52,799 bases of DNA from Patescibacteria group bacterium (GTDB lineage: Bacteria; Patescibacteriota; Minisyncoccia; 2-02-FULL-40-12; IGHO2-01-FULL-4-A), in contig JBBTSB010000011.1 of the NCBI GenBank assembly GCA_038064915.1, positions 1 through 52,799 of the forward strand, given 5' to 3'. Positions within the stretch are counted from its first letter, which is position 1; every line of letters starts with the position of its first letter. This document shows, piece by piece, positions 5,728 through 26,076 of this stretch. Below the pieces are notes generated by a model, which saw nothing but the letters and a program-made list of their open reading frames with translations, searched no databases and was not told where the DNA came from. The position numbers were made by a program, and so were the translations under genes.

Positions 5728-6411
5728 GTGGCCAATGGACGCTATCAAATAGAAAAGCTCACGGAGTTTGACAATCATGATTTTGTGAGTTTTATTCACA
5801 ACGGACGAACCGACCTAAACGGTTTTATTGCAATTCATCGTGGAAGCGCCACGCGACTTTCATTTGGGGCGACGCGTTTTTGGCATTATGCTACAGAGGA
5901 TGAAGCTCTATGCGACGCACTTCGTCTTTCGCGAATGATGTCATTTAAAGCAGCACTTGCAGGACTAAACTATGGTGGTGCTAAGGCGGTGATTTTACAA
6001 CATGGATCTCAAAGCCCCGCACAACGTAAACAACTTCTCCAAACCTATGCGGAAAAGGTGAATTATCTTGCTGGAAGATTTATCACTGGCACCGATGTGG
6101 GATTGGAGCAATCTGACGTAAAGATCATGTCTCGCGTAAGCCCGTATTTTGTGGGACTTAAAGTTGATCCCACTAAATATACTGCTATTGGGTTATATCA
6201 CTCAATCAAAACTTGCCTGGAAGAGGTGTACGGATCTTCACATACTAAAGATCGCAGTTTTGCTATTCAGGGGCTTGGAAAAATTGGTTTTGAACTACTG
6301 CGTTTATTGTACCAGGAGGGCGGACAAATTACCGTTTCTGAAATCAATGCGGAACGACTTTATCTATTTTCAAAATCTCTTCTTCTAATATCTTCGTTTT
6401 CTCCTTTGTAA
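5728..6411 (+). pseudogene. 3'-truncated Glu/Leu/Phe/Val dehydrogenase
   Basis: GFIAIH, GATR, GGAKAVI, TGTDVG and IQGLGKIG are present. Homology to the neighbouring full paralogue stops at EINAER (~6355), after which the frame reads into antisense pduO sequence. Confidence 0.8.
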
Positions 6412-6666
6412 TTTTTATTTTACCTGCCCGAACGACCATTCGGTCGGGCGGGCTTTTTTGCCCCATTGCTGCCAAACAATTTCCGCCTGGGCAATAAACA
6501 AATCTTCCTGAATGGGCTTAAGCCTTTTATCCTGACAAAATCCCAGCCAACTATTCAATTCGTCCAGTGCGCCAAGCGCCTCAAAAAGCGGATCGTCTTT
6601 GGCGATCTTCCTCGCCCCCATCGCACTCTTTCCTTTATCGCCTTTTCCTGTGAAGTAGATGGTCAC
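6350..6666 (-). pseudogene. Frameshifted, 3'-truncated second PduO-type adenosyltransferase
   Basis: VTIYFTGKGDKG...IQEDLFIAQAEI, then a 1-nt frameshift at ~6477; the shifted frame continues LAAMG...ILEEEILKIDKVVP, matching 1832-2338, then breaks off. Confidence 0.85.
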
Positions 6667-6785
6667 GTTTGAACAATAACCCCCTTTTATTCCCCTTTCA
6701 ATAAGGGGGAAAGATGGATGACCGATAACCTGGCTCAAAACAAGTTTTTACGGTATAATGAATCCTAGTTTTTCAATCGTAGAGT

Positions 6786-7835
6786 ATGGCTGATTTTGAT
6801 ATAGCAAAACTGCCGGAATTTGACCGCCACGAAATGGTGAGCTGTTTTCAAGACCAAAAAACAGGCCTCAAGGGCTACATTGCCATCCACAACACCAATA
6901 TCGGCCCAGCAACTGGTGGCACACGCATGTACGAATATGCTTCTGACGTAGATGCTTTGCGCGATGTCCTCCTGCTTTCCAAGGCTATGACGTACAAGTG
7001 TGCCTTGGCAGGCGTGAAGTTTGGCGGCGGCAAAGCTGTTATCATCTGTAACCCAAAAAACAAAACCAAGGAACTCTTGCGCACTTTTGGCAAGAAAGTT
7101 AATTATTTCGGCGGTATGTTCACGACTGGTACTGACGCCGGCATATCTGACCAAGATGCCACACTGATGGCTTCTTCAAGCAAGTATATTCTAGGTCAGG
7201 AAAACGGCATCAAAAAAGCGCATACATCGGATATGGCTGCTTTGGGCGTATACTATGGAATTAAAACCTGTTTTGAAGAACTCTACGGCTCTCCAGACCC
7301 TGCAGGAAAAACCATTGCTATTAAAGGTCTTGGCAAGCTCGGAGGCGAATTGGCACGGCTTTTGCTTCAGGACGACGCCAACATCATTGGAGCAGAAACA
7401 GACAAGGACGTCGTGATGGCGATAAAAAATAAGTTCCCAAAAATCACGTTTGTAAGCCACGAAGACATTCATAAGCAGGTCTGCGATTTGTATTCGCCGT
7501 GCGCGCTCGGCAATGATCTCACGCCAAAAGTCATTCGTGAACTACGGACTAAAGCCATCGCCGGAGGTGCCAATAACCAATTGGCGACTTCTGAAATAGG
7601 ATATAAACTCCATGAGATGGGCATATTGTATGCGCCGGATTATGTTGCCAACGCCGGCGGCCTTATCAACATTGTGGATGAGCTTGAAAAAAACGGCTAT
7701 CAGCGCAAACGAGTCCAGACCAGAATCAAAAAAATTAGTAAAACCCTGAGAACAATTTTTGCCCTTGCAAAACAGAAAAGTATTTCCACACATCTTATTG
7801 CTGACCAAATGGCCGAGAATATTTTCAAAAGATGA
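6786..7835 (+). CDS. Glu/Leu/Phe/Val dehydrogenase (leucine dehydrogenase-like)
   Basis: GPATGGTRM, MTYKCALAG, GGGKAVI, GLGKLG, PCALG, GGANNQL and APDYVANAGG motifs. Confidence 0.92.
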   Translation: MADFDIAKLPEFDRHEMVSCFQDQKTGLKGYIAIHNTNIGPATGGTRMYEYASDVDALRDVLLLSKAMTYKCALAGVKFGGGKAVIICNPKNKTKELLRTFGKKVNYFGGMFTTGTDAGISDQDATLMASSSKYILGQENGIKKAHTSDMAALGVYYGIKTCFEELYGSPDPAGKTIAIKGLGKLGGELARLLLQDDANIIGAETDKDVVMAIKNKFPKITFVSHEDIHKQVCDLYSPCALGNDLTPKVIRELRTKAIAGGANNQLATSEIGYKLHEMGILYAPDYVANAGGLINIVDELEKNGYQRKRVQTRIKKISKTLRTIFALAKQKSISTHLIADQMAENIFKR

Positions 7836-9250
7836 AGAGTGTCCTACATTTATTCCACGATGCGGCTAAGCGCGTACCGGCATACAAAGATTTTCTTCGG
7901 AAAAATGGCGTTCGGCCGGACAAAGTAACGACATGGGAAAATTTTCAGCACATACCACCGGTTAGCCGCGCCAATTATCTGCGCCAATATCCGCTTGAAC
8001 AGCTCTGCTGGGATGGCACATTCCAGGATATGTCGCTCGTATTCACCGCAACCTCCGGATCAACCGGCGAGCCGTTCTATTTTCCCCGCAACGATGCCAT
8101 TGACCGGCAGTCGGCAATGTACCACGAGTTATTTCTAAAGAACGTTGGCACGCCTAAGGCCAGTACGTTAGTTATCATAGCTTTTGGCATGGGGGTTTGG
8201 ATTGGCGGAATTATCACGTACCAGGCGTTTAAATATTTGTCACAAAAAGGATATTCTCTTACGATACTGACTCCGGGCGTCAATAAAAAAGAAATCTTCG
8301 CCGCTCTCAAACATATTGCTCCGAGTTTTGGCAATGTTATTATCTGCGCCTATCCCCCATTTCTAAAAGATATTATTGACGAGGGCAAACGCCAGGGCGT
8401 GGATTGGAAGAAATTCAACCTGCGTATTGTCTGCGCCGCCGAAGCATTTTCCGAAAAATTCCGCGATTATATTGTCCGCAAAGCTCATCTCAAGAATCCG
8501 CTAACTGACATTATGAATATCTATGGCAGTGCCGATATCGGCACGATGGCCGAAGAATCGCCGGTGAGTATTTTGATCCGCAGGATGGCGGTTGCCAACA
8601 AAAAACTCCACACGGCTCTGTTCCCGCTTTTAAATCGTCTGCCTACATTTGCGCAGTTCAATCCCGAATTTATCCAGTTCGAAGCGGTGAATAAAAATAT
8701 CTACCTGACCGGGGACAGCGCCCTGCCGCTTATCCGCTACGAAATCGGCGACCATGGCGGTGTTTTGTCGTATGATGAAGTGACAGTCATCCTTAAAAAA
8801 CATGGCATTGACCTCGCCCGAGAAGCAAGGAAAGCCGGCATCACTAAGACCATCCTCAAACATCCCTTTGTCTACATCTATGAGAGGGCTGACTTATCCA
8901 CTAAGCTCTATGGCGCTATCATTTATCCCGAACATGTGAAAGAGGGCATCAGCCACCCATCGCTTGAGGACTCCATCACCGGCAAATTCACGATGATGAC
9001 CAAGCACGATCCTCGGCAAAATGAATTTCTTGAAATCAACATTGAACTCAAGCCCGATGTTGTAATAACCGAAAGTCTAGAAAAAAAGATCGGCGAACGA
9101 ATTTCAACAGCGCTCCTGGAGCACAACGCGGAGCATCGCAACAATGCCGGCATGATGGGAGACCGCGTGAAACCCCAGCTGAAGTTTTGGAATTATGAGC
9201 ATCCGGAACACTTCAGGCCGGGAATAAAACAAAAATGGGTAAAAAAATAG
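7832..9250 (+). CDS. Phenylacetate-CoA ligase (PaaK)-family adenylating enzyme
   Basis: RVPAYKDF, ATSGSTGEP P-loop, YGSADIG, PLIRYEIGD; ATGA overlap with the upstream gene. Confidence 0.85.
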   Translation: MKSVLHLFHDAAKRVPAYKDFLRKNGVRPDKVTTWENFQHIPPVSRANYLRQYPLEQLCWDGTFQDMSLVFTATSGSTGEPFYFPRNDAIDRQSAMYHELFLKNVGTPKASTLVIIAFGMGVWIGGIITYQAFKYLSQKGYSLTILTPGVNKKEIFAALKHIAPSFGNVIICAYPPFLKDIIDEGKRQGVDWKKFNLRIVCAAEAFSEKFRDYIVRKAHLKNPLTDIMNIYGSADIGTMAEESPVSILIRRMAVANKKLHTALFPLLNRLPTFAQFNPEFIQFEAVNKNIYLTGDSALPLIRYEIGDHGGVLSYDEVTVILKKHGIDLAREARKAGITKTILKHPFVYIYERADLSTKLYGAIIYPEHVKEGISHPSLEDSITGKFTMMTKHDPRQNEFLEINIELKPDVVITESLEKKIGERISTALLEHNAEHRNNAGMMGDRVKPQLKFWNYEHPEHFRPGIKQKWVKK

Positions 9251-10317
9251 CAAAACCGATTTTCCTGGATGGTCCGGAAAAGCAAAACGAATTTACGATC
9301 GTTGTCGATGACTACAAAGAACAGCTCCGTGAGCTTTTCTTTGTTCAAAATCCAACACTAACATTTCAACCGGAAAAAGCCCCGAAAAAATTGCCTGATC
9401 CGGGAGGACGATGGGTTTACTACCCGTGGCTCAACACGATCGTCCATATTTTACCCGAACAAGAGTTTTTCCTTGTGCGTACGGCACGCAATCGCAATCT
9501 GATCACCGCCGAGGAACAGGAAAAGTTCTATAACAGCACTATCGGCATCGGCGGTTTGAGCATTGGCAACAGCGTGGCGCTCGCCATTGTGCTTCAGGGC
9601 GGAGGCCAACGTATCAAACTGGCTGATTTTGACCGACTTTCACTTACCAACACAAACCGAGTACGGGCCGGCGTGCAAAATCTTGGTTTACTCAAAATTG
9701 AAATCACCGCACGGCAGATCTATGAAATGAATCCCTATGCGGTGGTTGAATGTTTTCCTGATGGACTGACACCCGAGAATTTGGATAAATTTTTTTCCGG
9801 ACTGGACGTCATGATCGATGAGCTGGACAATATCGCGATCAAGTATCTTGTGCGGGAAAAAGCGAAGCAATACCGTATTCCCGTTGTCATGGCCGCCGAT
9901 AACGGCGACAATGCCGTCGTTGACATCGAGCGCTATGACCTGGATCCTAATCTTGCGTTTTTTCACGGCCGTTTAGGAAATATAACCCATGAAGAGCTGG
10001 CGAAATTGGACAAGTTCGGCATTGGCAAAACGATCACCAAACACATCGGACCGGAAAATGTCACTGAACGGATGCAGGACTCACTTTTGGACATAGGCAA
10101 AACCATCGTCTCATGGCCTCAATTGGGCGGAGCGGCTTTGATTAATGGCGCCGCCGTTGCCTATTGCGTCCGCAAAATCGTCTGCGGCCAAGAACTCGAA
10201 TCCAACCGCGCACTCATTTCTCCTGATGCCGTTTTGATCCCCGATTTTAATACACCTGCCAGCATTACTAAACGAAAAAAAATCTCTGCCAATTTCAAAA
10301 AAATCTTTGGATTGTAG
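9235..10317 (+). CDS. ThiF-family adenylyltransferase, Rv1355c-like (no fused nitroreductase)
   Basis: WVYYPW...RTARNRNLITAEEQ, IGIGGLSIG, LADFDRLSLTNTNR, IDELD, ERYD and SWPQLG motifs. Confidence 0.85.
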   Translation: MGKKIAKPIFLDGPEKQNEFTIVVDDYKEQLRELFFVQNPTLTFQPEKAPKKLPDPGGRWVYYPWLNTIVHILPEQEFFLVRTARNRNLITAEEQEKFYNSTIGIGGLSIGNSVALAIVLQGGGQRIKLADFDRLSLTNTNRVRAGVQNLGLLKIEITARQIYEMNPYAVVECFPDGLTPENLDKFFSGLDVMIDELDNIAIKYLVREKAKQYRIPVVMAADNGDNAVVDIERYDLDPNLAFFHGRLGNITHEELAKLDKFGIGKTITKHIGPENVTERMQDSLLDIGKTIVSWPQLGGAALINGAAVAYCVRKIVCGQELESNRALISPDAVLIPDFNTPASITKRKKISANFKKIFGL

Positions 10318-10380
10318 GGGACTAAAAAGAGACCTGACCCCTTTATCTCCTTAGTCAAATTCGAGAAAACAGATATTGCG

Positions 10381-10418
10381 AAACAGGGAGAAGAAATACT
10401 ACCATTCCTTCTCCCTGT
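10381..10418 (-). terminator. Hairpin, probable terminator between convergent genes
   Basis: ACAGGGAGAAG...CTTCTCCCTGT inverted repeat followed by TT on the minus strand. Confidence 0.55.
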
Positions 10419-10427
10419 AGGAACGTG

Positions 10428-10670
10428 TTACGGAACCAGGTTGTCGATCACGTCCTCGTAATCAACCGGATCTCCATACCTAGATTGATCGGAGCTCACC
10501 GTGAGTTTCCCCTCCGGAAGACTCGGTGAAACATTCAGACCGGCAACTTCCTGCGATGCATCCCGTGAAACGTGGATGTCTTGCGACGATACTCCGCACG
10601 TGATAATCGCCCCACAGAGCTTCCTCAAATCGATACCGTCAGCGATGACAATGATACGTTTGATCTGCAT
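10428..10670 (-). CDS. Small hypothetical protein (80 aa)
   Basis: GAGGTG SD before the ATG of MQIKRIIVIADG. Confidence 0.6.
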   Translation of the reverse strand: MQIKRIIVIADGIDLRKLCGAIITCGVSSQDIHVSRDASQEVAGLNVSPSLPEGKLTVSSDQSRYGDPVDYEDVIDNLVP

Positions 10671-10700
10671 ATTCACCTCGTGGGTTGTGTACACCTGAAC

Positions 10701-10797
10701 AAAAAAACTGGCCGCCATCATAGCGACCAGCTCGAGTTGTCTTTTGAAATTTGATTAACGCAAACGCCAAGACGAGCTGACCACCATGATCAACTCC
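10701..10797 (-). promoter_or_regulatory. Putative transcription attenuator (anti-antiterminator / antiterminator / terminator)
   Basis: Terminator CTGGTCGCTATGATGGCGGCCAG+T7 at 10701-10730. An alternative 18-bp helix pairs 10773-10790 with 10717-10734. A competing upstream hairpin GAGTTGATCA/TGGTCAGCTC is present. Confidence 0.7.
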
Positions 10798-10838
10798 GGC
10801 TGAGGCATATTAGATGCAGTGCGAAAACTTCCTAGCAT
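10755..10838 (-). CDS. Putative leaderless leader peptide MLGSFRTASNMPQPELIMVVSSSWRLR
   Basis: ATG lies 7 nt downstream of a -10 box; the ORF spans the attenuator helices. Confidence 0.45.
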   Translation of the reverse strand: MLGSFRTASNMPQPELIMVVSSSWRLR

Positions 10839-10845
10839 GACAGCA

Positions 10846-10874
10846 ATACTACATTGAGTGTCCTTGAAAGTCAA
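10846..10874 (-). promoter_or_regulatory. Sigma70-type promoter
   Basis: TTGACT-N17-TAGTAT on the minus strand. Confidence 0.65.
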
Positions 10875-10988
10875 TGCCCTACGTACCATTGCCACCAACC
10901 CAATTCCGATGTATAGCTTCTTATTCATAAAAAATTGATCTTGTCTACTGAGTATACCGTAGAATTTATCATGTTGTTTGTCAAATGA

Positions 10989-11213
10989 TCAATATATTTT
11001 TACAATCTCAATAATAAAGCTACGATCTCTTATCCTTTGCTTTATTGTATCCCCCTCCTTTGCTCCGAGAATAAATTGTATAAGTGGAGCATCAGCCGAG
11101 ACTTTTTTGTTTTCTATATCCACCTTGCCCGATAGCACAACCTCCCATGTCTGCGGAATACCGTTGACTATCATTTCGACGCGCGAACCAATAGTGATAC
11201 TTTGAGCTTTCAT
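10989..11213 (-). CDS. Stand-alone GreA/GreB C-terminal-like domain protein
   Basis: ITIGSRV...VSADAPLIQFILGAKEGD...IEIVKI matches the Gre C-terminal domain; no N-terminal coiled coil. Confidence 0.7.
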   Translation of the reverse strand: MKAQSITIGSRVEMIVNGIPQTWEVVLSGKVDIENKKVSADAPLIQFILGAKEGDTIKQRIRDRSFIIEIVKIY

Positions 11214-11219
11214 CCATCA

Positions 11220-11271
11220 ATGCTAGCCGTGAATAGTTTGTTGTCAATAACTGACAGTAAAATAGTGCTTG
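11220..11271 (-). promoter_or_regulatory. Promoter/operator copy 1
   Basis: TTGACA-N16-TAGCAT on the minus strand with a TGTCA-N5-TGACA palindrome over the -35; homologous to 13420-13472. Confidence 0.6.
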
Positions 11272-11339
11272 ATGCCAGATTTATATTGATGTTTGTTGAT
11301 GAGATGCGACAACAAAAGACATCTGGACTTCTTTAAACA

Positions 11340-12617
11340 TCAGGAAAACGATAAACAAAGGAGTATTGTTTTCATTTCTTCGGGAGTCATGCCGCCGTGA
11401 TGTCCGTAATATTTGATTTCGAACTTGTCCTTTTCATACCACCAAACTGATTCATTGTTGTAAGGCAAAATCGCGAGGTTCCCAATACGATCAAGAAACA
11501 CTTTCGACGGCTCGCCAAGACCGAAAAACTTCTGCTTGATCAAGTCATCAACATAGTAAACTTCCGCTTTGCAAGCCAAAGAGTTTCGAAGAAACGTATG
11601 CGCTCGCGAAAGATATTCTTCTCGCACGTGCAGAATCATGTTTCTGCAAGAACCTGCGGGGACTAGAAGTTCTCCTTTTTTGTTCGTCTTTAGCCATTCC
11701 GCAACCTGCGGAAAACGCTGATTGAGGTATATCGTAGTCTTTGGATTAATGGATGCATGCCCATGATCGGCAGTAATCATGCAAAGCGTATTCTTTAATT
11801 TCCCTTTTAGCTTGTTGAGAAAAAATCGCTCCATTGAATAAAAGAAAGCATCAACCTCAGCCGCAAATTGAGGCGAATCGGGACCGTATTGATGGGCAAT
11901 TTTGTCTATCGTATCAAAGTATGCAACGTAGTATGATTTTCTATGATTGGTGATCAATAAATCGCTGAGGTTGGTGAGGGCTTCCGGGATCGTAGCGTAC
12001 GGAATGTTGGTACCTCCTCGAGTCATAATTTTCGTGTATGGAGATTGTGCATACTCGACATAGCTGAAGATAAAAGAGTCAATATTTTTCTCGCGAAGCC
12101 CTGCATAAAGTGTCTGCTGCGGGAAAAGGTCTTTCGGATCAATACCCGTTGATTGCAAATTGCCACGTTCTTTTTTCCCCGCAAAAGAAAAAAGCAAGGG
12201 GGCTATGATGGCATCAACCTTTGGTTCGTAATAAAACCACTCATATACTCCGCCTTCGCCAACCGGCAATCCTGTATGAATTGTCGTCATTTCAGAGGCT
12301 GTCGTCGAGGGATATTGGGTTGTCAGCTGTGAAACAACCCCGTTTTTTACTATGTATCTTAAAAATGGATATTTTTCGCTATACCTCTCAAAAAATTGCC
12401 ATCCAAAACCGTCAATGACGAACAAAACTATTTTTTCATATCTAGATGGCAAGGAACCGAGTACTTCTTTAGGAAGCAGAGATTTTTTTTCATCAAAAAA
12501 GATATCCTGTATTGTTCGCGGGATATTGGAAAAACAGTAGGAATCGTAGAGGGGCCTGATAAACAATTTGGAAAACTTTGCACCCTCGATGGTTTCCAAT
12601 GAATGTCGATTGATCAT
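11340..12617 (-). CDS. Alkaline phosphatase superfamily protein (nucleotide pyrophosphatase/phosphodiesterase-like)
   Basis: LFVIDGFG, PSTT, DKIAHQYGP, ITADHGH and GHHGG metal-site motifs. Confidence 0.85.
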   Translation of the reverse strand: MINRHSLETIEGAKFSKLFIRPLYDSYCFSNIPRTIQDIFFDEKKSLLPKEVLGSLPSRYEKIVLFVIDGFGWQFFERYSEKYPFLRYIVKNGVVSQLTTQYPSTTASEMTTIHTGLPVGEGGVYEWFYYEPKVDAIIAPLLFSFAGKKERGNLQSTGIDPKDLFPQQTLYAGLREKNIDSFIFSYVEYAQSPYTKIMTRGGTNIPYATIPEALTNLSDLLITNHRKSYYVAYFDTIDKIAHQYGPDSPQFAAEVDAFFYSMERFFLNKLKGKLKNTLCMITADHGHASINPKTTIYLNQRFPQVAEWLKTNKKGELLVPAGSCRNMILHVREEYLSRAHTFLRNSLACKAEVYYVDDLIKQKFFGLGEPSKVFLDRIGNLAILPYNNESVWWYEKDKFEIKYYGHHGGMTPEEMKTILLCLSFS

Positions 12618-12662
12618 ATTTTATATTGTATATCAAATAACTAGCCCAACCAAGCGATTGGG

Positions 12663-13388
12663 CTATGAGGTACTGCATGCTACTGCCAGTGACTTTTGAA
12701 GGTCTGACGGGTAGCCGAGATGTATCCAGGACGCATCGTAATAATTGCCGGAGATCGGCCTCTTATCGTGAATCGCGTCCATGAAAACGTATCCTATGCT
12801 TTTGCCTGGATGAGGATATCGCTCGATGATATCGAAGATTCGCTCATCGCTTGACCAAATCGTCATATCTCTTAGACAATTTGACGGCAGGGCTTGCGGA
12901 GGTGGCCACTGAAGATTTACCGCGCGTGATTGATTGATGTAACCAATACCGTGCGTATCAACCGTATCTACATCTGGGGACAGTGTTATTGCGGCGTCTG
13001 CTTCGTCTTTAGCCAATACTCGCATCACACTGCCGTACACGTGCGGCATGGCAACAATATCGCCCGGCATTGCCACAAACGGCCCGTGCACAAATGGTCT
13101 TAGATCTCGGTATATTCCCCACCCCTCTGTTCCAAGAATATGAGGAACATATGTAACCGAAACGGTCCGTGGCTTATTGCGGTCAATGAAATCGACTACA
13201 TCGTTTGCCCTATAGGCAACACCAACAATGAGGTCAACCGATCCAAATTCACTCACGAGCGCTTTCATGATATGAAAAATGACCGGCTGTTCATCTATGG
13301 GAAGGAGACACTTTTGAGTTGACTGCGTTATGGAACCCATTCGACATCCCCTGCCACCCGCCAAAACCACTGCAGTGATGGTACGCAT
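12663..13388 (-). CDS. Sugar-phosphate nucleotidyltransferase family protein
   Basis: AVVLAGGRGCRM...QKCLLPI...PGD motifs. Confidence 0.8.
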   Translation of the reverse strand: MRTITAVVLAGGRGCRMGSITQSTQKCLLPIDEQPVIFHIMKALVSEFGSVDLIVGVAYRANDVVDFIDRNKPRTVSVTYVPHILGTEGWGIYRDLRPFVHGPFVAMPGDIVAMPHVYGSVMRVLAKDEADAAITLSPDVDTVDTHGIGYINQSRAVNLQWPPPQALPSNCLRDMTIWSSDERIFDIIERYPHPGKSIGYVFMDAIHDKRPISGNYYDASWIHLGYPSDLQKSLAVACSTS

Positions 13389-13419
13389 CTTACCTCCTGT
13401 AAAGGTACTAGTTTACCTT

Positions 13420-13472
13420 ATGCTAGCGGTGGATATTTTGTCGTCAATAATTGACAACAAATGAGTGGCTTA
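13420..13472. promoter_or_regulatory. Promoter/operator copy 2, between the divergent NTP transferase and TrmB genes
   Basis: TTGACG-N16-TAGCAT on the minus strand with a GTCAA-TAA-TTGAC palindrome. Confidence 0.6.
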
Positions 13473-13520
13473 CGATCTTGCTTTTATGTGGACTTGTTGG
13501 TAGCATGTAACAACAGACTC

Positions 13521-14303: not shown

Positions 14304-14356
14304 AACTAGCTTGATGACCTGGTTTACATGATGATATTTATGGTATAATAACAGCT

Positions 14357-16966: not shown

Positions 16967-17324
16967 CGATAACAAGGACTTCCTCGATATTTTTTCCCTC
17001 AAACTCACGTCGGCAGGTTTTGAGGTTACCACTGCGCAAAGCGGCAAGGAAGGAATAGAATTGGCAAAGAAAATCAGGCCGGATTTAGTGCTTTTGGATG
17101 TGGAAATGCCAGATATGAACGGAGTTGAAACACTGACAAAGCTAAAAGAGGATCAGAATACGGCAGCATTGAGGGTTGCGTTCCTCACCAATTACGGTGA
17201 ACCCCAAAAGGAAATCAGTTGGACCGATGAAAAATTTGCTCGTGAAGCCGGCGCTGTGGACTACATCAAAAAGAGTGAAGATCTCTCGGAGATTGTGGAT
17301 GAAGTAAAGAAGATTCTCAAATAA
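16941..17324 (+). CDS. Single-domain response regulator (receiver)
   Basis: ILIIDD, PDLVLLDVEMP, FLT and YIKK motifs. Confidence 0.92.
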   Translation: MATRILIIDDNKDFLDIFSLKLTSAGFEVTTAQSGKEGIELAKKIRPDLVLLDVEMPDMNGVETLTKLKEDQNTAALRVAFLTNYGEPQKEISWTDEKFAREAGAVDYIKKSEDLSEIVDEVKKILK

Positions 17325-19020: not shown

Positions 19021-19021
19021 T

Positions 19022-20503
19022 ATGAACAATACTCCACAAAACGACCCAGCTGACGCACTGCGCACCGTTGCGCAGGAACTGGATGAAATAGCAAAAAAGT
19101 TGTCCACCGAACTCGAGCCCGAACCTGTGGCTGAACCTACGCCTGAACCCGCACCTGAACCCAAGCCTGAACCGGTACCCGACCAGATTCCAGCGCCGCG
19201 AGCGCCTCAAGAACCGCCAACCGCTCACGTGCATGACACGGGCAATGCTAACGCTATCAATCCCCTTATCAGCAGAGCGGAGCGTATTCGTGTGGAAATT
19301 GATGCCGCGCGTAGACTTCCCCTCGAGCAGGTTCCTGTTATCGAGTTAGTTGACAACCTTATTGCATACGCATATTTTCTCAGCGCTTCCGATATCCATT
19401 TTGACCCCGACGAAACGAAGCTCATCGTGCGTATTCGTGTGGATGGAATCCAACATGATGTATTCGAGCTCCCGAAGAATCTACAACCGACGATCATCAG
19501 TCGCATCAAGGTACTCTCGAGTATGCGTACCGACGAACATCAATCAGCACAAGATGGCCGCTTTAAGACAAGCATCCCTGATATGCCCCAGCAATTCGAT
19601 ATCCGCGTATCAGTTGTACCCACCTATTACGGTGAAGATGCTGTGGCCCGCTTACTCGTGGAGCATACGCCCATTACCTCGCTGGATGATTTAAATTTTT
19701 CCGATTCTGACAAGGCAAAAGTCGAGCGCGCAATTCAAAAACCCAACGGTATGATCCTAGCAACCGGACCTACGGGATCCGGAAAGACGACGACGTTGTA
19801 TACCGTTTTACTTACCCTCAAAACTCCGGATGTTTCAATTATTACCATCGAGGATCCCGTTGAGTACTCAATCCATGGTATCAACCAAATTCAGGTCAAT
19901 GCTGATACCGGTCTCACCTTTGCCGATGGTCTGCGCTCCATTTTACGTCAAGATCCTGATATAATCATGGTAGGGGAAATCCGAGACAAAGAAACAGCTG
20001 CAATAGCGGTCAATGCCGCATTGACGGGACACTTGCTTCTGTCCACACTGCATACCAATGATGCGGCAACTACCCTGCCTCGCTTGCTGGATATGGGCGT
20101 TGAACCATTCCTGATCGCCTCGACCGTAAACATCGCGATCGGACAGAGGTTGGTACGCAAACTTTGCCAAACATGCAAAGTTCCCCGTTCGATCACGGAA
20201 GCCGAATTTGCAAGACTTTCGACGGTTCTGCCCGATCACCTTGTTGCCAAAGACTCACAGTTTTTTGCCAGCAAGGGTTGCGCAGAGTGCGGCAATACAG
20301 GGTTTGCAAGCCGTGTTGCCATTCATGAGGTACTTGAAATGAACGACGAAATTCGAGACGCAGTAATGAAACGCATCAATGCATCCGAAATCAGAAAACT
20401 TGCTATGAGCAAGGGTATGACCACGATGCTTGAAGATGGTTTTCAAAAAGTCCTGCTAGGTCTCACGACCATAGAGGAAGTATTGCGTGTGGTACAAGAA
20501 TAG
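19022..20503 (+). CDS. pilB: Second PilB/GspE-family ATPase with Pro/Glu-rich N-terminal linker
   Basis: Same Walker A/B, Asp and His boxes and tetra-Cys motif; EPEPVAEPTPEPAPEP linker. Confidence 0.88.
   Translation: MNNTPQNDPADALRTVAQELDEIAKKLSTELEPEPVAEPTPEPAPEPKPEPVPDQIPAPRAPQEPPTAHVHDTGNANAINPLISRAERIRVEIDAARRLPLEQVPVIELVDNLIAYAYFLSASDIHFDPDETKLIVRIRVDGIQHDVFELPKNLQPTIISRIKVLSSMRTDEHQSAQDGRFKTSIPDMPQQFDIRVSVVPTYYGEDAVARLLVEHTPITSLDDLNFSDSDKAKVERAIQKPNGMILATGPTGSGKTTTLYTVLLTLKTPDVSIITIEDPVEYSIHGINQIQVNADTGLTFADGLRSILRQDPDIIMVGEIRDKETAAIAVNAALTGHLLLSTLHTNDAATTLPRLLDMGVEPFLIASTVNIAIGQRLVRKLCQTCKVPRSITEAEFARLSTVLPDHLVAKDSQFFASKGCAECGNTGFASRVAIHEVLEMNDEIRDAVMKRINASEIRKLAMSKGMTTMLEDGFQKVLLGLTTIEEVLRVVQE
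19877..20157 (+). repeat. Second copy of the 281-bp exact repeat
   Basis: Identical to 18394-18674. Confidence 0.92.
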
Positions 20504-20504
20504 T

Positions 20505-21569
20505 ATGGCAAATCCCTTCTACTACATTTCAATGAAGGAAAAAATGTTTTTCGCCAGGCATCTGGCGATCATGTCGCGTTCGGGAATGCAGATTTTGGAT
20601 ATCCTTCGTACTCTGCAAAAACAAGCGAAGTCAAAAACATTCAAAAAAATCATTGCTGGTCTCATCGACGATGTTGGAAATGGACAGTTCCTTGCCGATG
20701 GTCTAGCAAAACATCAAAAATTATTCGGTGAGTTTTTTATCAATATCGTACGTGTCGGTGAAATCAGCGGATCGCTCGCGGAAAACCTTGAATACCTCGC
20801 AGACTCTCTGAAAAAGAAGCGTGAACTGGAGGCCAAGGTCAAAGGTGCGATGATGTATCCTGTCATTATTCTGTTCGCTACGTTCGGAATTACTGGAGCG
20901 CTTATGTTTTTTATATTTCCCAAGATTTTACCGATCTTCAGATCGCTGAAGATTGAACTTCCGCTGATAACCAAGATTTTTATTACCGTTTCTACGTTCT
21001 TGATTGATAACGGACCCCTGGTGTTCCTGGGAGTCGTGATCTCGTGTATCGCCATGTGGTTTCTCCTCCGCATTCCTTCCATCCGCTATATCTGGCATCG
21101 TTTTATGCTTATGCTTCCCGTTGCCGGTACGATGGTGCAGAATTTTAATGTCATCGCATTCGTGCGTGCCCTGTCGCTTCTTATGAAAAGCGGAGTAAAA
21201 ATCGTCCAATCACTCGAGATTACGGCAAACTCATCAAACAATCTTGTCTATCGAAAAGTCCTCAAGGAAGTTTCCGTCGCGGTGGGGCAGGGTGATCCCA
21301 TTTCCAAGCATCTTGCATTACATCCACGCCTGTTTCCCGTGGTATTTTCCCAAATGATTGCCGTGGGAGAAGATACTGGCCGACTTACCGATACGGGCCT
21401 TTACTTGGCTGATTACTTTGAAGGAGAGCTGGATAACTCAACAAAAACGCTCTCCAGTGTTCTTGAACCGTTACTGTTGGTTATTATGGGATTTGTCGTT
21501 TGCTTCATCGCGCTTGCCATTATCCTTCCTATCTATGAAGTTTCACAACATATCGGTCCTCAAAAATGA
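20505..21569 (+). CDS. pilC: Type IV pilus/T2SS inner-membrane platform protein (PilC/GspF)
   Basis: FARHLAIM..SG, GEISGSL, AMMYP, GEDTGRL and LEPLL motifs. Confidence 0.9.
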   Translation: MANPFYYISMKEKMFFARHLAIMSRSGMQILDILRTLQKQAKSKTFKKIIAGLIDDVGNGQFLADGLAKHQKLFGEFFINIVRVGEISGSLAENLEYLADSLKKKRELEAKVKGAMMYPVIILFATFGITGALMFFIFPKILPIFRSLKIELPLITKIFITVSTFLIDNGPLVFLGVVISCIAMWFLLRIPSIRYIWHRFMLMLPVAGTMVQNFNVIAFVRALSLLMKSGVKIVQSLEITANSSNNLVYRKVLKEVSVAVGQGDPISKHLALHPRLFPVVFSQMIAVGEDTGRLTDTGLYLADYFEGELDNSTKTLSSVLEPLLLVIMGFVVCFIALAIILPIYEVSQHIGPQK

Positions 21570-22008
21570 TCACACGAAGCAACGGCGAGGTTTTACCTTA
21601 ATTGAGGTATTGATCAGTCTTAGTATTCTTACGATACTGCTCGGATTAAGCGTTCCATTTGTTCTGAACTTTTACGAACGATACCAAATTGATTCGGAAC
21701 GTGCAAAATTTGTATCCCTCTTGCGACAGGCCCGTACCATGTCGCTTGGCGGTGAGGGTAGCGCTGATCATGGCATGTACATTTCTGGCACGCAGTTTAC
21801 GGTCTATGAGGGGGCAAATTATGCAACAAGGAATACGGCAAAAGATCAGACATCTGAGCGTGAAACCAATGTAGACATTACTGGACCTACCGAGGCAACG
21901 TTTGCCTATTTGACGGGAACCACCGCTTCTCAAAGCTTTATCCTCGATAACCGAGTCAAACAAAACACCATACATGTTAACACCGAAGGAACAATCGACT
22001 GGCAATAG
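21535..22008 (+). CDS. Type IV pilin-like protein (FimT/GspH-like)
   Basis: RRG-FTLIEVLI prepilin site followed by a hydrophobic helix. Confidence 0.85.
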   Translation: MKFHNISVLKNDHTKQRRGFTLIEVLISLSILTILLGLSVPFVLNFYERYQIDSERAKFVSLLRQARTMSLGGEGSADHGMYISGTQFTVYEGANYATRNTAKDQTSERETNVDITGPTEATFAYLTGTTASQSFILDNRVKQNTIHVNTEGTIDWQ

Positions 22009-23413
22009 CCCTGAGCAGAATCGAAGGGGCAGTAGCCTCGTTGAGATACTGATAGCATTGGCTATTTTTTCGCTGACCATCAGCGCGGCGATGATGATAT
22101 TTTTTGGCGGTCAAAATTTTGTTGCGGGATCTCTGGAATCGCGCGAAGGTATTCAAAAAGCTCATGACGGTATGGAAGCTCTGCGATTCATCCGTGACAA
22201 TTGGTGGGTTAGCTTGACGGACGGAATTCATGGACTGGAATTTAAACCCGATGAAACGTGGGGACTTACCGCATCTCCTGATGAAAGTGATGGGTTTACC
22301 CGCACGGTTTCTATCAGTACGGACAGCTTGAACATTAAACACGTGGATCTTACGGTGAGCTGGGATCACCCCCCGGAAGGTTCAAAAACCATTGAACTAT
22401 CACAAACCCTGGCGGCACCAAATCAAGGGCTTATTGGAAACTGGAGTCAACCTTGCGCAATTGGTTCGGCAAACGGTTCTTCAGGATCGAAAGGTACAGA
22501 TGTGGCGTATGGAAATGGAATGGCCTTCGTGAGCAGTTCTGCGGCGGCCGTAGGAAAGGAAGATCTCTTCATTTTCGATGTGTCCAATCCGGCAATTCCC
22601 ACTCAGATCGGATCTTTGAACGTAGAGCAGGGATGGAAAGCTCTTGCCTACGGTGGAAACTATGTTTATGGCATCGAGGAAAATAGCCCGGACTTTTTTG
22701 TCATTGATGTAAGCACACCCAGCAATCCGACAGAGGTAGGAAAACTTACGCTAAATGGCGGACTTGGGCGCTATGTCATGACTCGGGGAAACTACGTATA
22801 TGCAACGACGGCAACAAAGGCCGGCGGGCCCGAGTTTTTTATCATTGATATAAGTATCCCTTCAAGTCCCCGGGTAGTATCGAGTTTGGAGATTAATGCG
22901 GACGTAAATGAAGTCAGTACCTTACTCGATGTAGCCTACATCGCCACCTCGGATAACAACGAAGAATTGATTGCCATAGACGTTTCCGATCCTGCCGATC
23001 CCCAGGAACTGGGAAGCTACAATGCCCCTGGCAACACCGATGGAAGATCGGTGCATGCAAAAACGGCAAAACGTATCTACTTGGGTCGGAGCTATTCCAC
23101 CAGTGATCATGAATTCTTTATCCTGGACGCAACCGCGTTTCCTATCACTCGTCGTGGTTCGACTGATATTTCCGGCGGCGTGTTTAGCCTGATCACAGCC
23201 GGAACATTGAGCTTTTTGGGAACAGACAAAAGTAACGAAGAGTTTCAGAACTTCAATATTAAAAATCCCCTTTTGATCACACAGGTCTCATCGCTCGATC
23301 TTTCCAACCTTGGCACCGGTGCTGATTACTATGACAACATTGTGTACATGTCGGTAAACAATGTGGATATTTTAAAACTGATTTCAACTACCGCCTTTGG
23401 CTTCTGTGTATAA
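21974..23413 (+). CDS. Large pilin-like protein with LVIVD-repeat beta-propeller
   Basis: RRG-SSLVEILIA N-terminus; repeated FIFDVSNP, FVIDVSTP, FIIDISIP and IAIDVSDP. Confidence 0.8.
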   Translation: MLTPKEQSTGNSPEQNRRGSSLVEILIALAIFSLTISAAMMIFFGGQNFVAGSLESREGIQKAHDGMEALRFIRDNWWVSLTDGIHGLEFKPDETWGLTASPDESDGFTRTVSISTDSLNIKHVDLTVSWDHPPEGSKTIELSQTLAAPNQGLIGNWSQPCAIGSANGSSGSKGTDVAYGNGMAFVSSSAAAVGKEDLFIFDVSNPAIPTQIGSLNVEQGWKALAYGGNYVYGIEENSPDFFVIDVSTPSNPTEVGKLTLNGGLGRYVMTRGNYVYATTATKAGGPEFFIIDISIPSSPRVVSSLEINADVNEVSTLLDVAYIATSDNNEELIAIDVSDPADPQELGSYNAPGNTDGRSVHAKTAKRIYLGRSYSTSDHEFFILDATAFPITRRGSTDISGGVFSLITAGTLSFLGTDKSNEEFQNFNIKNPLLITQVSSLDLSNLGTGADYYDNIVYMSVNNVDILKLISTTAFGFCV

Positions 23414-23921
23414 CAACAACCGGGTTTCCTCCAATAACCAGGCAGGATTCACTCTCATCGAGATGCTCATCTATGCGATCATTTTTGTTATTTTCGTTGG
23501 TGGCATCGTCATGTCCTCATTCTCTCTTTTGAGTTCATCACAGCGAACAAACTCCCAAATCGAAGTCGCCGATAACGCTCGCTTTCTCACCCAGAAGATG
23601 CAGCGAATTATTCAGGGAGCAACGGTAATCAACAGCCCTACGGTAGGAAATAGCGCCGCAACACTGTCCGTCAATACGGCGGATACTTCCTCAAATCCTT
23701 TTGTGATTGACCTGTCCAACGGTGTGGTCCGCCTCAAGAGGGGTTCGGGAGCCCCTCTTGCCCTTACGAATAGTTTTGTTACTGTAACCAGCTTGAGTTT
23801 CAAAAATTATTCCTATTCTACGATCACCAAAAACACCATCCGGATTCAGGCGAACGTCATTAGCGTTGAGCCGAATCAACCAGCTTCCACGTCGATTGAC
23901 GTTTTTATATCGGCCCAATGA
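23397..23921 (+). CDS. Type IV pilin-like protein (PilW/GspJ-like)
   Basis: AG-FTLIEMLIY prepilin motif. Confidence 0.85.
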   Translation: MASVYNNNRVSSNNQAGFTLIEMLIYAIIFVIFVGGIVMSSFSLLSSSQRTNSQIEVADNARFLTQKMQRIIQGATVINSPTVGNSAATLSVNTADTSSNPFVIDLSNGVVRLKRGSGAPLALTNSFVTVTSLSFKNYSYSTITKNTIRIQANVISVEPNQPASTSIDVFISAQ

Positions 23922-24301
23922 CACATTTCAAACAACAAAAGGGATTCATTGTACTTACCACGGTTATCATTTTGAGTGTAGTGCTCCTGCTTTTGGCGCA
24001 ATCGTTGAGTTCGTCAGGATATTTCGAGCGCCAAGGAATGCTGCAATTTGAGTTCAAGGAGTTGTCGTATTTTGTGGCGCTTTCTTGCATGGATCGTGCG
24101 ATCGCAAACCTGTTTCAGGATTTTGAGTACGGCGGAGATGAAACATTCGTTGTCGATGCATATTCGTGTTATGTGTACCCTATGACATACTCGGGAGCTG
24201 ATACTATCGTCCAAACTTCAGCGACCGTGGAATCCAGCACGACAAAACTCAAATCAATCCTCGATGCCGATTTCAATATTACTTCTTTTCAAGAACAATA
24301 A
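23918..24301 (+). CDS. Minor pilin, PilX/GspK-like
   Basis: KG-FIVLTTVIIL prepilin motif lacking Glu5. Confidence 0.7.
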   Translation: MTHFKQQKGFIVLTTVIILSVVLLLLAQSLSSSGYFERQGMLQFEFKELSYFVALSCMDRAIANLFQDFEYGGDETFVVDAYSCYVYPMTYSGADTIVQTSATVESSTTKLKSILDADFNITSFQEQ

Positions 24302-24303
24302 TC

Positions 24304-26076
24304 ATGACCGATGCAACGACAAGCGACAGCGACATCCTCTATATCGGCAAGTCAAACTTTCGCGGATCAAGCCGGGTTTTTGGCATCAAAAATAAAGACC
24401 GGTTTCAGCACATGTATGTCATCGGCCAAACGGGCACCGGAAAAACGTCACTCTTGCGTAATCTTGCGATCCAAGATATTGAGGCCGGGCGTGGCGTCGC
24501 CGTAGTAGACCCACACGGCGAATTTGTCCAAAGCCTCTTGGCTGCGATTCCGGAACAGCGTCTCGACGATGTCATTTACTTCAATCCGATCGACACGGAT
24601 TACCCGGTTGGTTTCAATATCCTCGAGGTAAAAAATCCCGACCACAAGCATCTGGTATCTTCGGGGCTCATGTCCATTTTCACCAAAATCTGGGCAAATG
24701 TGTGGTCTGCCCGCATGGAGTACATTCTCAACAACACGGTACTTGCGCTCCTGGATACCCCGGGCACAACGCTGTTGGGCATTCCCCGCATGCTCGTGGA
24801 CAAAATTTACCGCCAATCCATCATCGACAAATGCAAGGATCCCGTCGTGCGCTCGTACTGGATCAATGAATACGAACAGTACCAGGAACGCTTCCGCACG
24901 GAAGCCATCGCCCCGATCCAAAACAAAGTCGGGCAGTTTCTTTCGACGTACCTTGTCCGCAACGTGGTCGGCCAGCCCAAAAGCACCCTGAACATCGAAC
25001 AGATCATGAATGAAGGAAAGATTTTACTTGTTAATGTCTCCAAGGGGTTGATCGGCGAAGACAACTCTGCACTCTTGGGGGCCATGCTCATCACCAAAAT
25101 CCAGCTTGCCGCCATGGAACGTGTGCGTATCGAAAAAGAATCGGAACGGCGGGATTTTTTGCTCTACGTAGATGAGTTTCAAAACTTTGCTACTGACTCG
25201 TTTGCTTCGGTACTTTCCGAAGCACGCAAATATCGCCTCGGTTTGATTATCTCCCACCAGTACATAGGACAACTTGTCACCATGGGAGCCGGCGGAATCA
25301 GCACCAAAGTCCGTGATGCGATTTTTGGCAACGTCGGCACCATGATCACATTTCGTGTCGGCGCGACTGATGCGGAATTTCTCGAAGTACAGTTCGCGCC
25401 TGATCTGGTGGCGCAGGATTTTGTGAATATTCCCAACTACAATGTCTACATGCGTCTCATGGTGGATGGATTTTCGACGCGCGCATTCTCCGCAACGACT
25501 CTTCCCCCTATCGAGCTCAAAACCACGCCGGAACAAATTAAGTACATTATCAACAATTCTCGAAAAAACTACAGCCGCCCGCGCGCGCAAGTTGAGCAGG
25601 AAATTTCCGAGTGGAGTGGCATGTCCGGACCACGCGTTCAGCCGATGCCATCCCCCATTGCCAATATGCCCGCTCCGATGTCATTTCAGTCCGGAACGCG
25701 AAGAGAAGAATACGCCGAAGGCGAAGAGGAAATCGTAAAAGTCGCGCCACCTCCGGTTGCCTATATCAAGCCCAAGTACGAAACCAACCTTCACGACATT
25801 GGTATCGATATCGGAGAAATGCAGATGCCAAAAGAAGTCATGCGCGAAGTGCCACCTGAAGTATCCTTGGGTGCCCTTGAGCGAAGCGGTCCGGATGGCC
25901 CGTCGGGTGCTCGCCGCAAACGGAAACGCAAACGCAAGCACGGCCCAGGTTTTGATCAAGGCGGCTTGCGCGAAGCTTTGGGAAGTGCAATGAACCCACA
26001 AGCGCCCGCCACCGCTGAAAGCTCCGGCGTGGCGAAAGAGGAAGAATACGACGAAGAGCCCGACCGCCACTCCTAG
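24304..26076 (+). CDS. TraD/VirD4/HerA-like P-loop ATPase
   Basis: HMYVIGQTGTGKT, VDPHGE, YVDEFQNF, SEARKY and AIFGNVGT; disordered C-terminal tail. Confidence 0.88.
   Translation: MTDATTSDSDILYIGKSNFRGSSRVFGIKNKDRFQHMYVIGQTGTGKTSLLRNLAIQDIEAGRGVAVVDPHGEFVQSLLAAIPEQRLDDVIYFNPIDTDYPVGFNILEVKNPDHKHLVSSGLMSIFTKIWANVWSARMEYILNNTVLALLDTPGTTLLGIPRMLVDKIYRQSIIDKCKDPVVRSYWINEYEQYQERFRTEAIAPIQNKVGQFLSTYLVRNVVGQPKSTLNIEQIMNEGKILLVNVSKGLIGEDNSALLGAMLITKIQLAAMERVRIEKESERRDFLLYVDEFQNFATDSFASVLSEARKYRLGLIISHQYIGQLVTMGAGGISTKVRDAIFGNVGTMITFRVGATDAEFLEVQFAPDLVAQDFVNIPNYNVYMRLMVDGFSTRAFSATTLPPIELKTTPEQIKYIINNSRKNYSRPRAQVEQEISEWSGMSGPRVQPMPSPIANMPAPMSFQSGTRREEYAEGEEEIVKVAPPPVAYIKPKYETNLHDIGIDIGEMQMPKEVMREVPPEVSLGALERSGPDGPSGARRKRKRKRKHGPGFDQGGLREALGSAMNPQAPATAESSGVAKEEEYDEEPDRHS

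Follow-up and report, generated by a model that had tools for sequence, protein, structure and literature searches.

Gene content of the locus

We analysed 52,799 nt of contig JBBTSB010000011.1 (positions 1-52,799, forward strand; referred to throughout as the window) from the 0.75-Mb genome of a Patescibacteria group bacterium (G000; 12 contigs, 95.3% complete), in which genes for an amino acid dehydrogenase, a PaaK-family ligase, a ThiF-like enzyme and an Acg-type oxidase lie upstream of a seven-transmembrane (7TM) sensor histidine kinase, two receivers and an accessory type IV pilus operon. DNA of this locus recurs in groundwater metagenomes among public sequencing runs. Six-frame open reading frames (ORFs) of the window were annotated with Pfam and NCBIfam profile searches, which confirmed at its coordinates every gene named in a first-pass annotation made from the sequence alone, but also revealed two minus-strand genes between ThiF and TrmB that had been overlooked. 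The resulting features are as follows (coordinates, strand, assignment, basis).

5719-6411 (ORF 5398-6411), +, truncated ELFV amino acid dehydrogenase remnant (Pfam ELFV_dehydrog_N only; tblastn)
6786-7835, +, intact ELFV-family dehydrogenase of the Leu/Trp/Phe-dehydrogenase type (Pfam ELFV_dehydrog_N and ELFV_dehydrog)
7832-9250, +, PaaK-family (ANL) adenylate-forming ligase, 472 aa (NCBIfam PaaK, E 7e-14, N-terminal half only)
9235-10317, +, predicted ThiF-like ATP-dependent cyclase, N-terminal half of Rv1355c/TrzS (NF005901, E 1.6e-101)
11340-12617, -, NPP-type phosphodiesterase (Pfam Phosphodiest, E 8.9e-28)
12663-13388, -, sugar-phosphate nucleotidyltransferase (Pfam NTP_transf_3/NTP_transferase)
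13461-14303, +, TrmB-family transcription regulator (Pfam TrmB, E 1.6e-16)
14357-15358, +, Acg-type flavin-dependent oxidase, nitroreductase superfamily (NF047509, 192 bits, cut-off 199)
15359-16966, +, HisKA_7TM sensor histidine kinase (Pfam HisKA_7TM, HisKA and HATPase_c)
16941-17324, +, stand-alone CheY-like receiver (Pfam Response_reg, E 3.5e-24)
17344-19020, +, receiver-PilB fusion, pilus extension ATPase (Pfam Response_reg and T2SSE)
18989-20503, +, second PilB-type ATPase without receiver, start uncertain (Pfam T2SSE, E 1.9e-121)
20487-21569, +, PilC platform protein (Pfam T2SSF, two repeats)
21535-22008, +, pilin, likely start 21535, with the prepilin motif RRG/FTLIEV, the slash marking the cleavage position (Pfam N_methyl, translation)
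21974-23413, +, large pilin with LVIVD/beta-propeller repeats (Pfam N_methyl and LVIVD)
23397-23921, +, pilin (Pfam N_methyl)
23918-24301, +, small protein with a pilin-like hydrophobic N-terminus (KG/FIVL, no Glu5; translation, no Pfam match)
24304-26076, +, TraD/VirD4/HerA-like P-loop ATPase, last gene of the pilus operon (Pfam TrwB_AAD_bind and DUF87; partial NCBIfam matches to TraD and CedD)

The dehydrogenase and ligase genes overlap by 4 nt, ligase and ThiF by 16 nt, and kinase and receiver by 26 nt, and the oxidase gene abuts the kinase gene (15358/15359). These overlaps support translational coupling, in agreement with the coupled dehydrogenase, ligase and ThiF operon proposed in the first-pass annotation. 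The phosphodiesterase and nucleotidyltransferase (11340-13388) place the enzyme operon and the TrmB-oxidase-kinase operon apart from one another. Both genes were singletons when 1409 ORFs from 85 loci were grouped by single linkage, being absent from the other 84 loci compared, and they represent an intervening insertion outside the conserved cassette. TrmB, with homologues within or beside the cassette in 8 of the 85 loci, is a recurrent but optional member. A promoter and terminator scan of 5300-15500 returned 22 promoter-like sites (19.6 expected) and 12 terminator-like sites (11.1 expected), and hence no usable operon boundaries.

Enzymes of the cassette

The match of the ThiF-like protein to the Rv1355c family model spans positions 36-340 of 722, the score lying under the full-length cut-off because only half of the model is present. 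It is 50-54% identical to ThiF-nitroreductase fusions of Patescibacteria and 36-41% identical to Rv1355c-family proteins of mycobacteria and Nocardia, and in an alignment with nine fusions it matches end to end, the G-loop, DxD, NxNR, Lys and DxxD(N/S) motifs all being invariant. The best match in the PDB is TcdA, described as an oxazolone-forming dehydratase (PMC12596934). On the strength of these alignments the protein is assigned as a stand-alone N-terminal half belonging to the OxzB/TyzB/TrzS cyclase clade, with a predicted intact adenylation site.

The oxidase (14357-15358) matches the C-terminal half of the same Rv1355c family (E 6.6e-15), and its only match in the PDB is MsAcg, the Acg protein of Mycobacterium smegmatis (2ymv). 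It belongs to a shorter, Acg-like subtype, retaining the APSxxNxQPW and RxTxR motifs of the fused forms together with a C-terminal Arg. In most other loci the oxidase gene adjoins ThiF, and in some Patescibacteria the two are fused. A possible remnant oxidase behind ThiF in the window was considered and rejected, as a tblastn search of the genome with the oxidase found only the gene itself.

The ligase (7832-9250) has no match in Pfam, and its weak matches to PaaK and F390 synthetase are limited to the first half of the protein. A structural model built from an alignment of homologues (pLDDT 90.2) nevertheless predicts a two-domain PaaK (ANL) fold, with PaaK1/2 (E ~1e-22) and BT_0428 as the nearest Foldseek neighbours and AjiA1, NatL2 and ClxA (E 1e-15 to 1e-17) following. 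The SGS[TS]G[EK]P loop and the C-terminal Lys466, which we take to be ANL signatures, are invariant in 40 homologues, so that the modelled fold and the motifs both assign the ligase to the PaaK subfamily of ANL enzymes. With a score of 51 bits against TIGR02155, the model for phenylacetate-coenzyme A (CoA) ligase with a cut-off of 646, it is not an equivalog of that enzyme.

The intact dehydrogenase (6786-7835) scores 280 bits against the ScyB-type tryptophan dehydrogenase model, under the cut-off of 600, and matches leucine dehydrogenase (3vpx, E 1.7e-80) and tryptophan dehydrogenase (5b37, E 2.7e-67) in the PDB; judged by these matches, it is nearest to leucine, tryptophan and phenylalanine dehydrogenases. 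The upstream remnant (5719-6411) is 75% identical in tblastn to residues 6-234 of the 359-residue enzyme from the cassette of a genome of the same genus (G002) and has lost the C-terminal ~125 residues, whereas the intact dehydrogenase is only 44% identical to the G002 enzyme. By sequence identity the remnant is thus the true orthologue of the G002 cassette dehydrogenase, and the presence of both genes suggests a gene replacement at the 5' end of the cassette.

Conservation of the cassette

Among 40 close relatives, ThiF is present in four, and these four, with no others, have a kinase orthologue that covers the 7TM part; seven others match the kinase over its catalytic half only. The order of genes differs among the four, being dehydrogenase-oxidase-ligase-ThiF-hydrolase-kinase in G002 (with receiver, receiver-PilB, PilC, pilins and TraD across a contig break), dehydrogenase-ligase-ThiF-oxidase-kinase in G012, and ThiF-ligase-aromatic ammonia-lyase-oxidase-kinase-receiver-receiver-PilB-PilC in G011 and G009.

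A search with the ligase in a collection of species-representative genomes returned 566 relatives, and the best 80 of these 566 loci were examined, all from Patescibacteria-type metagenome-assembled genomes by label, save three labelled Gammaproteobacteria. In the vicinity of the ligase, ThiF is found in 78 of the 80 loci (39 of the 39 with flanks of 6 kb or more on either side), the oxidase in 70 (38/39), the 7TM kinase in 63 (37/39), the dehydrogenase in 35 (20/39), receivers in 26 (12/39) and pilus genes in two (1/39). More than 20 different gene orders occur, with the kinase mostly last, and the two well-flanked loci that lack the kinase (L031 and L033) look degenerate. Many of the genes flanking the cassette are housekeeping genes (DnaK/DnaJ/GrpE, ribosomal proteins and aminoacyl-tRNA synthetases). 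Shuffled gene orders within such flanks argue that the linkage is retained and not merely frozen.

In an even sample of 400 Patescibacteria genomes, 42 carry the ligase, 54 carry ThiF and 132 carry the 7TM sensor domain. With a kinase list that covers 125 of the 132 kinase-positive genomes, the ligase lies <10 kb from a 7TM kinase in at least 39 of its 42 carriers, and ThiF does so in at least 43 of its 54 carriers, with one more at 13 kb. The arrangement is far beyond chance. The survey across Patescibacteria that had been suggested alongside the first-pass annotation thus strongly favours a unit of ligase, ThiF, Acg-type oxidase and 7TM kinase, and the synteny of enzymes and kinase extends to other genomes, the two being linked in 37 of the 39 well-flanked loci. 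We regard the four as very probably a conserved functional unit, and the conserved linkage seen in pairs of a synthase and a membrane kinase is present here as well.

The first enzyme of the cassette is variable. In the 85 loci, the gene beside the cassette encodes an ELFV dehydrogenase in 39, a HisC-like transaminase in nine (mostly abutting directly), an IlvE-type transaminase in five and an enzyme of the aromatic ammonia-lyase family in two; an alpha/beta hydrolase is found nearby in four. Each of the four kinds of first enzyme strips an amino acid of its alpha-amino group, and the first enzyme is interchangeable. The lyase is tied to the pathway by a 924-aa protein (P0008) in which a ThiF of the same clade (42% identical to that of the window) is fused to an aromatic amino acid lyase domain. 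A quick IQ-TREE phylogeny of the ligases carried labels taken from single-linkage clusters, among which three 'dehydrogenase' proteins of 393-406 aa are distant ELFV members (23% identity) and the dehydrogenase of L084 lies far from the cassette; the sole result taken from it is that the two lyase-linked ligases, only 29-35% identical to that of the window, form a separate, fully supported clade. In agreement with the proposal that dehydrogenase and ligase supply an acyl precursor, which gains support from the exchange of the dehydrogenase for other amino-removing enzymes and from the CoA-free structural neighbours of the PaaK-fold ligase, we infer that the deaminated acid would be the carboxylate substrate of the ligase. 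As dehydrogenases and transaminases are reversible and the lyase-family enzymes could alternatively be aminomutases, the direction of this first reaction is not settled.

A proposed alternative to the acyltransferase

Searches of the G000 genome gave no match to FeeM (PF21926) or to the exosortase-type acyltransferase TIGR03694, in the window or elsewhere, so that the absence of an OxzA-like N-acyltransferase remarked on in the first-pass annotation is borne out genome-wide for these two models. The FeeM-type fold is that of OxzA and TyzA (PMC10404671).

Seventeen genomes of the 400-genome sample are positive for ThiF and negative for the ligase, and in 12 of these 17 a short, distant ThiF lies just upstream of a 7TM kinase. 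Eight loci were examined. In three (L098 6330-10514; L103 5697-9859; L100 6150-9987), which we refer to as type II cassettes, a FeeM-like gene stands between the short ThiF and the kinase, one case being clear (PF21926, E 3.9e-17; TIGR03694, 122.8 bits against a cut-off of 111.95) and the other two weaker homologues; the L100 cassette also has a receiver, and no oxidase was seen in any of the three. Four further loci (L097 5127-9745; L101 4093-9036; L102 5008-10031; L104 5733-9433) represent another variant with a short ThiF. L097, L101 and L102 encode a weakly GNAT-like protein of ~265 aa, a protein of 106-125 aa that belongs to no family and could be a carrier or substrate for an E1-like enzyme, the short ThiF and a long 7TM kinase; in L101, L102 and L104 an S-adenosylmethionine (SAM) methyltransferase is placed between ThiF and kinase, L104 consisting of ThiF, methyltransferase and kinase only. 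The eighth locus combines a ThiF resembling Rv1355c with an Acg-type oxidase and the kinase. That one kinase family adjoins both acyltransferase plus ThiF and ligase plus ThiF plus oxidase provides the best argument that the ligase does the work of the acyltransferase, which would then be replaced and not merely missing.

Ten kinase loci from genomes with neither ligase nor ThiF, selected non-randomly on best E-value, were inspected in addition. In L105 (4101-6433), a gene of the autoinducer synthase family (PF00765, 43.2 bits, cut-off 24; also FeeM-like) is directly upstream of the 7TM kinase, and in three unrelated genomes (L107, L110 and L111) a UbiA-family prenyltransferase occupies this position. 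Other neighbours of the kinase are SAM methyltransferases in two loci, a GNAT-like protein with a methyltransferase in one, and, in one locus each, a Rossmann protein similar to ThiF/shikimate dehydrogenase, a pyridoxal phosphate-dependent decarboxylase nearby and a divergent LPG-synthase-C-type protein. As no control set was scanned, these biosynthetic neighbours constitute a lead and not a result.

Kinase, receivers and pilus

The hydropathy profile of the kinase sensor reveals ~8-9 hydrophobic segments joined by short loops, with no extracytoplasmic domain. Inside these segments several polar or helix-breaking residues (T36, W50, N54, R71, P92, P120, G181 and P215) are conserved in 57 homologues. 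In three of the loci surveyed (L025, L044 and L067), a single biosynthetic cassette is followed by two or three tandem 7TM kinase genes.

The G000 genome has a single HisKA (PF00512) match and only two receiver domains over the Pfam cut-off, the stand-alone and the PilB-fused receiver, both without a DNA-binding domain; kinase and receivers make up the sole two-component system of the genome. In receiver-PilB, neither the phospho-acceptor Asp57 nor Lys110 varies among eight orthologues and the stand-alone receiver. The second PilB is 69% identical to the ATPase part of receiver-PilB. With PilB, PilC and pilins bearing class III signals, the downstream genes encode type IV pilus or filament machinery, in which the large pilin (21974-23413) is a candidate tip or adhesin subunit, and the small pilin-like protein and the TraD-like ATPase that follow the pilins are conserved in G002 and G014. 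Contig C9 of G000 carries a core pilus locus distinct from this one. Two further TraD/VirD4-like ATPase paralogues of ~41% identity are encoded elsewhere in the genome (C2 12408-13679 and C3 69496-70740). As there is one kinase and only two receivers, one of which is fused to PilB, the output of the kinase is by elimination the accessory pilus encoded downstream, and in this genome we consider the pilus ATPase to be its likely target.

Other features of the window

Rfam and tRNA scans of the window detected tRNA-Lys (1746-1821) only, with no match in the GC-rich stretch at 4800-5500. At 231-1821, a large serine recombinase (resolvase, recombinase and zinc ribbon domains) overlaps with its 3' end the minus-strand tRNA-Lys(TTT), an arrangement that may mark the edge of an integrated element. 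Two proteins are encoded on the minus strand at 2357-5503, one a PA14/Ig-like surface protein of 865 aa and the other, of 169 aa, bearing a lipoprotein-like signal (LAGC), the gene of the latter lying in the GC-rich stretch (0.52) together with several overlapping, spurious open ORFs. Downstream of the pilus operon, the minus strand carries a family of paralogues of 528-629 aa (26073-27686, 34230-35816, 37163-38758, 41609-43498 and 44028-45725), for which the matches are weak and each under the Pfam cut-off; a treble-clef zinc-finger match is found at the C-terminus in the four downstream genes and at each end in the first. An Nramp-family metal transporter is encoded at 31747-32976 on the minus strand.

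Comparison with known systems

In the mycobacterial N-acyl tryptazolone pathway TrzAS (Rv1356c/Rv1355c), TrzS cyclises N-acyl-tryptophan with ATP and then desaturates it to the oxazolone in an O2-dependent step (PMC12856293). The ThiF of the window aligns at full length with the ThiF half of the Rv1355c family, and the oxidase is of the same Acg-like flavin-dependent type, Acg being named as the closest solved homologue of the TrzS oxidase domain (PMC12856293). In contrast to TrzAS, cyclase and oxidase are here separate genes in separate operons, a PaaK-fold ligase and a dehydrogenase stand in place of the TrzA/OxzA-type acyltransferase, and a sensor kinase gene accompanies the cassette, a linkage not reported for trzAS, near which cyclic-di-GMP (c-di-GMP) genes are noted (PMC12856293). 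OxzAB of Pseudoalteromonas rubra and TyzACB of Mycobacterium tuberculosis follow the logic proposed here for the window, in which an N-acyl amino acid is cyclised by ThiF with ATP and desaturated by a flavoenzyme, and TyzB/TyzC demonstrate that a split form of cyclase and oxidase exists (PMC10404671; bioRxiv 10.1101/2020.06.11.147165). Both systems use acyl-CoA or acyl-acyl carrier protein and an acyltransferase of the FeeM/acyl-homoserine lactone synthase fold, whereas the window encodes an adenylating ligase that probably uses a deaminated amino acid as acyl donor. The type II cassettes of other Patescibacteria, with FeeM-like protein, short ThiF and kinase, are nearer to OxzAB than is the window. 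As regards oxazolone synthetases, the window thus has the predicted cyclase and lacks the FeeM-fold acyltransferase.

The structural neighbours of the ligase include the PaaK-family enzymes NatL2, AjiA1 and ClxA of benzoxazole biosynthesis (14-16% identity), although the CoA ligases PaaK1/2 score higher. NatL2 and ClxA are described as adenylating an aryl acid and forming an ester or amide without CoA (PMC7204872, PMC12519233, PMC9400959).

The position of the kinase is reminiscent of quorum-sensing pairs. The PhcB/PhcS pair likewise has its synthase gene beside that of a polytopic membrane kinase, and CqsA/CqsS, LuxM/LuxN and AgrBD/AgrC are further pairs of a signal synthase and a polytopic membrane histidine kinase. 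In common with these systems, the sensor of the window consists of bundled membrane helices and lacks a periplasmic domain; it differs from them in being of the HisKA_7TM type and in having as output a CheY-like receiver and receiver-PilB instead of transcription. PilB ATPases are known to be regulated through c-di-GMP-binding MshEN domains and through CheY-like control by PilG/PilH. Similarly, a regulatory module precedes the T2SSE ATPase of the window at its N-terminus and a CheY-like protein is encoded alongside, but here a phospho-receiver in direct fusion with PilB serves as the module, and the genome has only one kinase.

A full-text literature search for the HisKA_7TM family yielded only two papers, of the census or review kind. 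In the literature covered, which excludes subscription journals and supplements, no paper was found on the cassette, on a link between an oxazolone synthase and a histidine kinase, or on quorum sensing in Patescibacteria, and the OxzAB preprint contains no occurrence of 'kinase' or 'Patescibacteria'. Nodes from Patescibacteria may be included in the supplementary neighbourhood networks of PMC12856293 and PMC10404671.

A proposed signalling pathway and its alternatives

The cassette looks like an oxazolone synthase pathway in which the acyl-amino acid is formed by a distinct route, and like a synthase-receptor pair; its enzymes probably build an oxazolone-like small molecule. In the mechanism that we propose, the ELFV dehydrogenase would convert a hydrophobic amino acid to the 2-oxo acid, which the ligase would adenylate and couple, without CoA, to another amino acid at its amino group, standing in for an acyltransferase of the OxzA/TyzA type. 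The ThiF-like enzyme would then cyclise the N-acyl amino acid to an oxazolone at the expense of ATP, and the oxidase would desaturate it. The product, presumably small and labile, would exit the cell and be sensed within the membrane by the 7TM kinase, which in turn would phosphorylate the CheY-like receiver and the receiver fused to PilB and so switch the accessory type IV pilus on or off, as might suit a quorum or host-contact signal. For the full chain from amino acids through an oxazolone-type signal and the kinase to the pilus, we estimate a probability of about 0.5.

Several observations weigh against this scheme. As to the chemistry, no precedent was found for a 2-oxo acid as acyl donor; the characterised oxidases of the Acg-like type use O2 (PMC12856293), and the bacterium studied here is a groundwater organism; in the window, the oxidase lies 4 kb from ThiF in the other operon, beyond two unrelated genes of opposite strand; an ABC exporter accompanies the cassette in no more than 15 of the 85 loci, and the window has no exporter of any kind. 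As to the association, 5 of the 42 ligase-positive genomes gave no ThiF match at E<=1e-10, and in nine of the 42 ThiF is either missing or placed on a different contig. The 7TM kinase family extends beyond the cassette, occurring in 132 of the 400 genomes where the ligase occurs in 42, and the compared genomes are related, so that the counts overstate independence. No RNA run was found among the public runs that carry the locus. With respect to the pilus, it is in this family alone that pilus genes are found with the cassette (five genomes, and two of the 80 wider loci), other cassettes of the phylum have at most CheY-like receivers beside them, and the module of receiver and receiver-PilB occurs without kinase or enzymes in G001, G014 and G029. 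The interpretation offered in the first-pass annotation is thus partly supported: the functional unit and the absence of the acyltransferase stand, the link to the pilus is seen in this family only, and a product sensed by the kinase as a quorum or host-contact signal is a proposal.

The evidence may also be read in the opposite direction, with the kinase sensing an external compound, for example an aromatic or branched-chain acid or amino acid from a host, and the enzymes importing, converting or inactivating that compound, so that the cassette would sense and process a cue instead of producing a signal of its own. Dehydrogenase, transaminases and lyase act on free amino acids that auxotrophic cells must import, PaaK-type ligases are classically catabolic, and the linkage data suit processing as well as synthesis. 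We nonetheless judge this unlikely, as the characterised members of the ThiF/oxidase clade are biosynthetic (PMC12856293, PMC10404671), the ligase-negative relatives pair the kinase with synthases of the FeeM/LuxI family, which are builders and not degraders, and receivers without DNA-binding output leave no usual route to the induction of a catabolic operon.

A product of the oxazolone or N-acyl amino acid type might instead have a role other than signalling, as a membrane constituent, antimicrobial or stress protectant, with the kinase linked through a pathway that controls or accompanies its synthesis but not acting as its receptor. Such a role would accord with mycobacterial oxazolones, which lack an assigned role and are mostly cell-associated (PMC12856293, PMC10404671), and with the antimicrobial activity that N-acyl tyrosine derivatives can have (PMC12856293). 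The receivers, however, have no output domains through which transcription of the enzymes could be regulated, one of them here being PilB itself, and the occurrence of the kinase family beside chemically diverse enzymes (FeeM/LuxI-like, UbiA-type and methyltransferases) is as expected of synthase-receptor pairs, which makes this explanation rather doubtful.

It is quite improbable that ThiF and ligase modify a protein or peptide, for example a pilin or the kinase, by E1-like activation or in the manner of ribosomally synthesised and post-translationally modified peptides, instead of a free small molecule. The ThiF of the window matches the clade of small-molecule oxazolone synthases end to end, the genes of the window overlap or abut and leave no space for a conserved precursor gene, and no conserved ORF family of >=70 aa was found in the 85 loci, ORFs under 70 aa not having been searched; these points outweigh the facts that most ThiF-like enzymes target proteins, peptides or tRNA (PMC12596934) and that variant cassettes have the conserved 106-125-aa protein just upstream of the short ThiF. 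Finally, an inherited gene order with no functional tie among enzymes, kinase and pilus, to which the location of the cassette in conserved core regions with many housekeeping flanks might lend some colour, is scarcely credible given the >20 internal gene orders in which the kinase is retained, the exact match of presence and absence among the 40 close relatives, and the two ThiF subfamilies and two types of acyl-forming enzyme that adjoin the same kinase family.

Biological implications

The proposed signalling pathway can be placed in a wider context. HisKA_7TM kinases of Patescibacteria might act throughout the phylum as receptors for small molecules that the cells make themselves, each kinase gene lying next to that of the matching synthase, with the window representing a case of direct control of a pilus motor without a transcription factor; this generalisation is tentative. 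The synthases would be of several types, namely ligase/ThiF/oxidase, FeeM/LuxI-like acyltransferase with or without ThiF, and perhaps prenyltransferase or methyltransferase routes. What bacterial oxazolones do physiologically is described as a major unresolved question (PMC12856293), and signalling has been no more than a conjecture (bioRxiv 10.1101/2020.06.11.147165). The conserved pairing of oxazolone-type synthases with one kinase family offers a concrete candidate for the receptor, with which the question could be addressed in vitro; if correct, it would be the first receptor for a metabolite of the oxazolone class.

The cassette further suggests a route to N-acyl amino acids that is independent of CoA and fatty acids, which would suit an organism of minimal lipid and cofactor metabolism. 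Patescibacteria are mostly uncultured episymbionts in which host finding depends on type IV pili (PMC11623550), and in the 0.75-Mb genome analysed here the sole two-component system would lead straight to a pilus ATPase. If the proposed pathway holds, the ultrasmall Patescibacteria would have their first described system of cell-cell or symbiont-host signalling.

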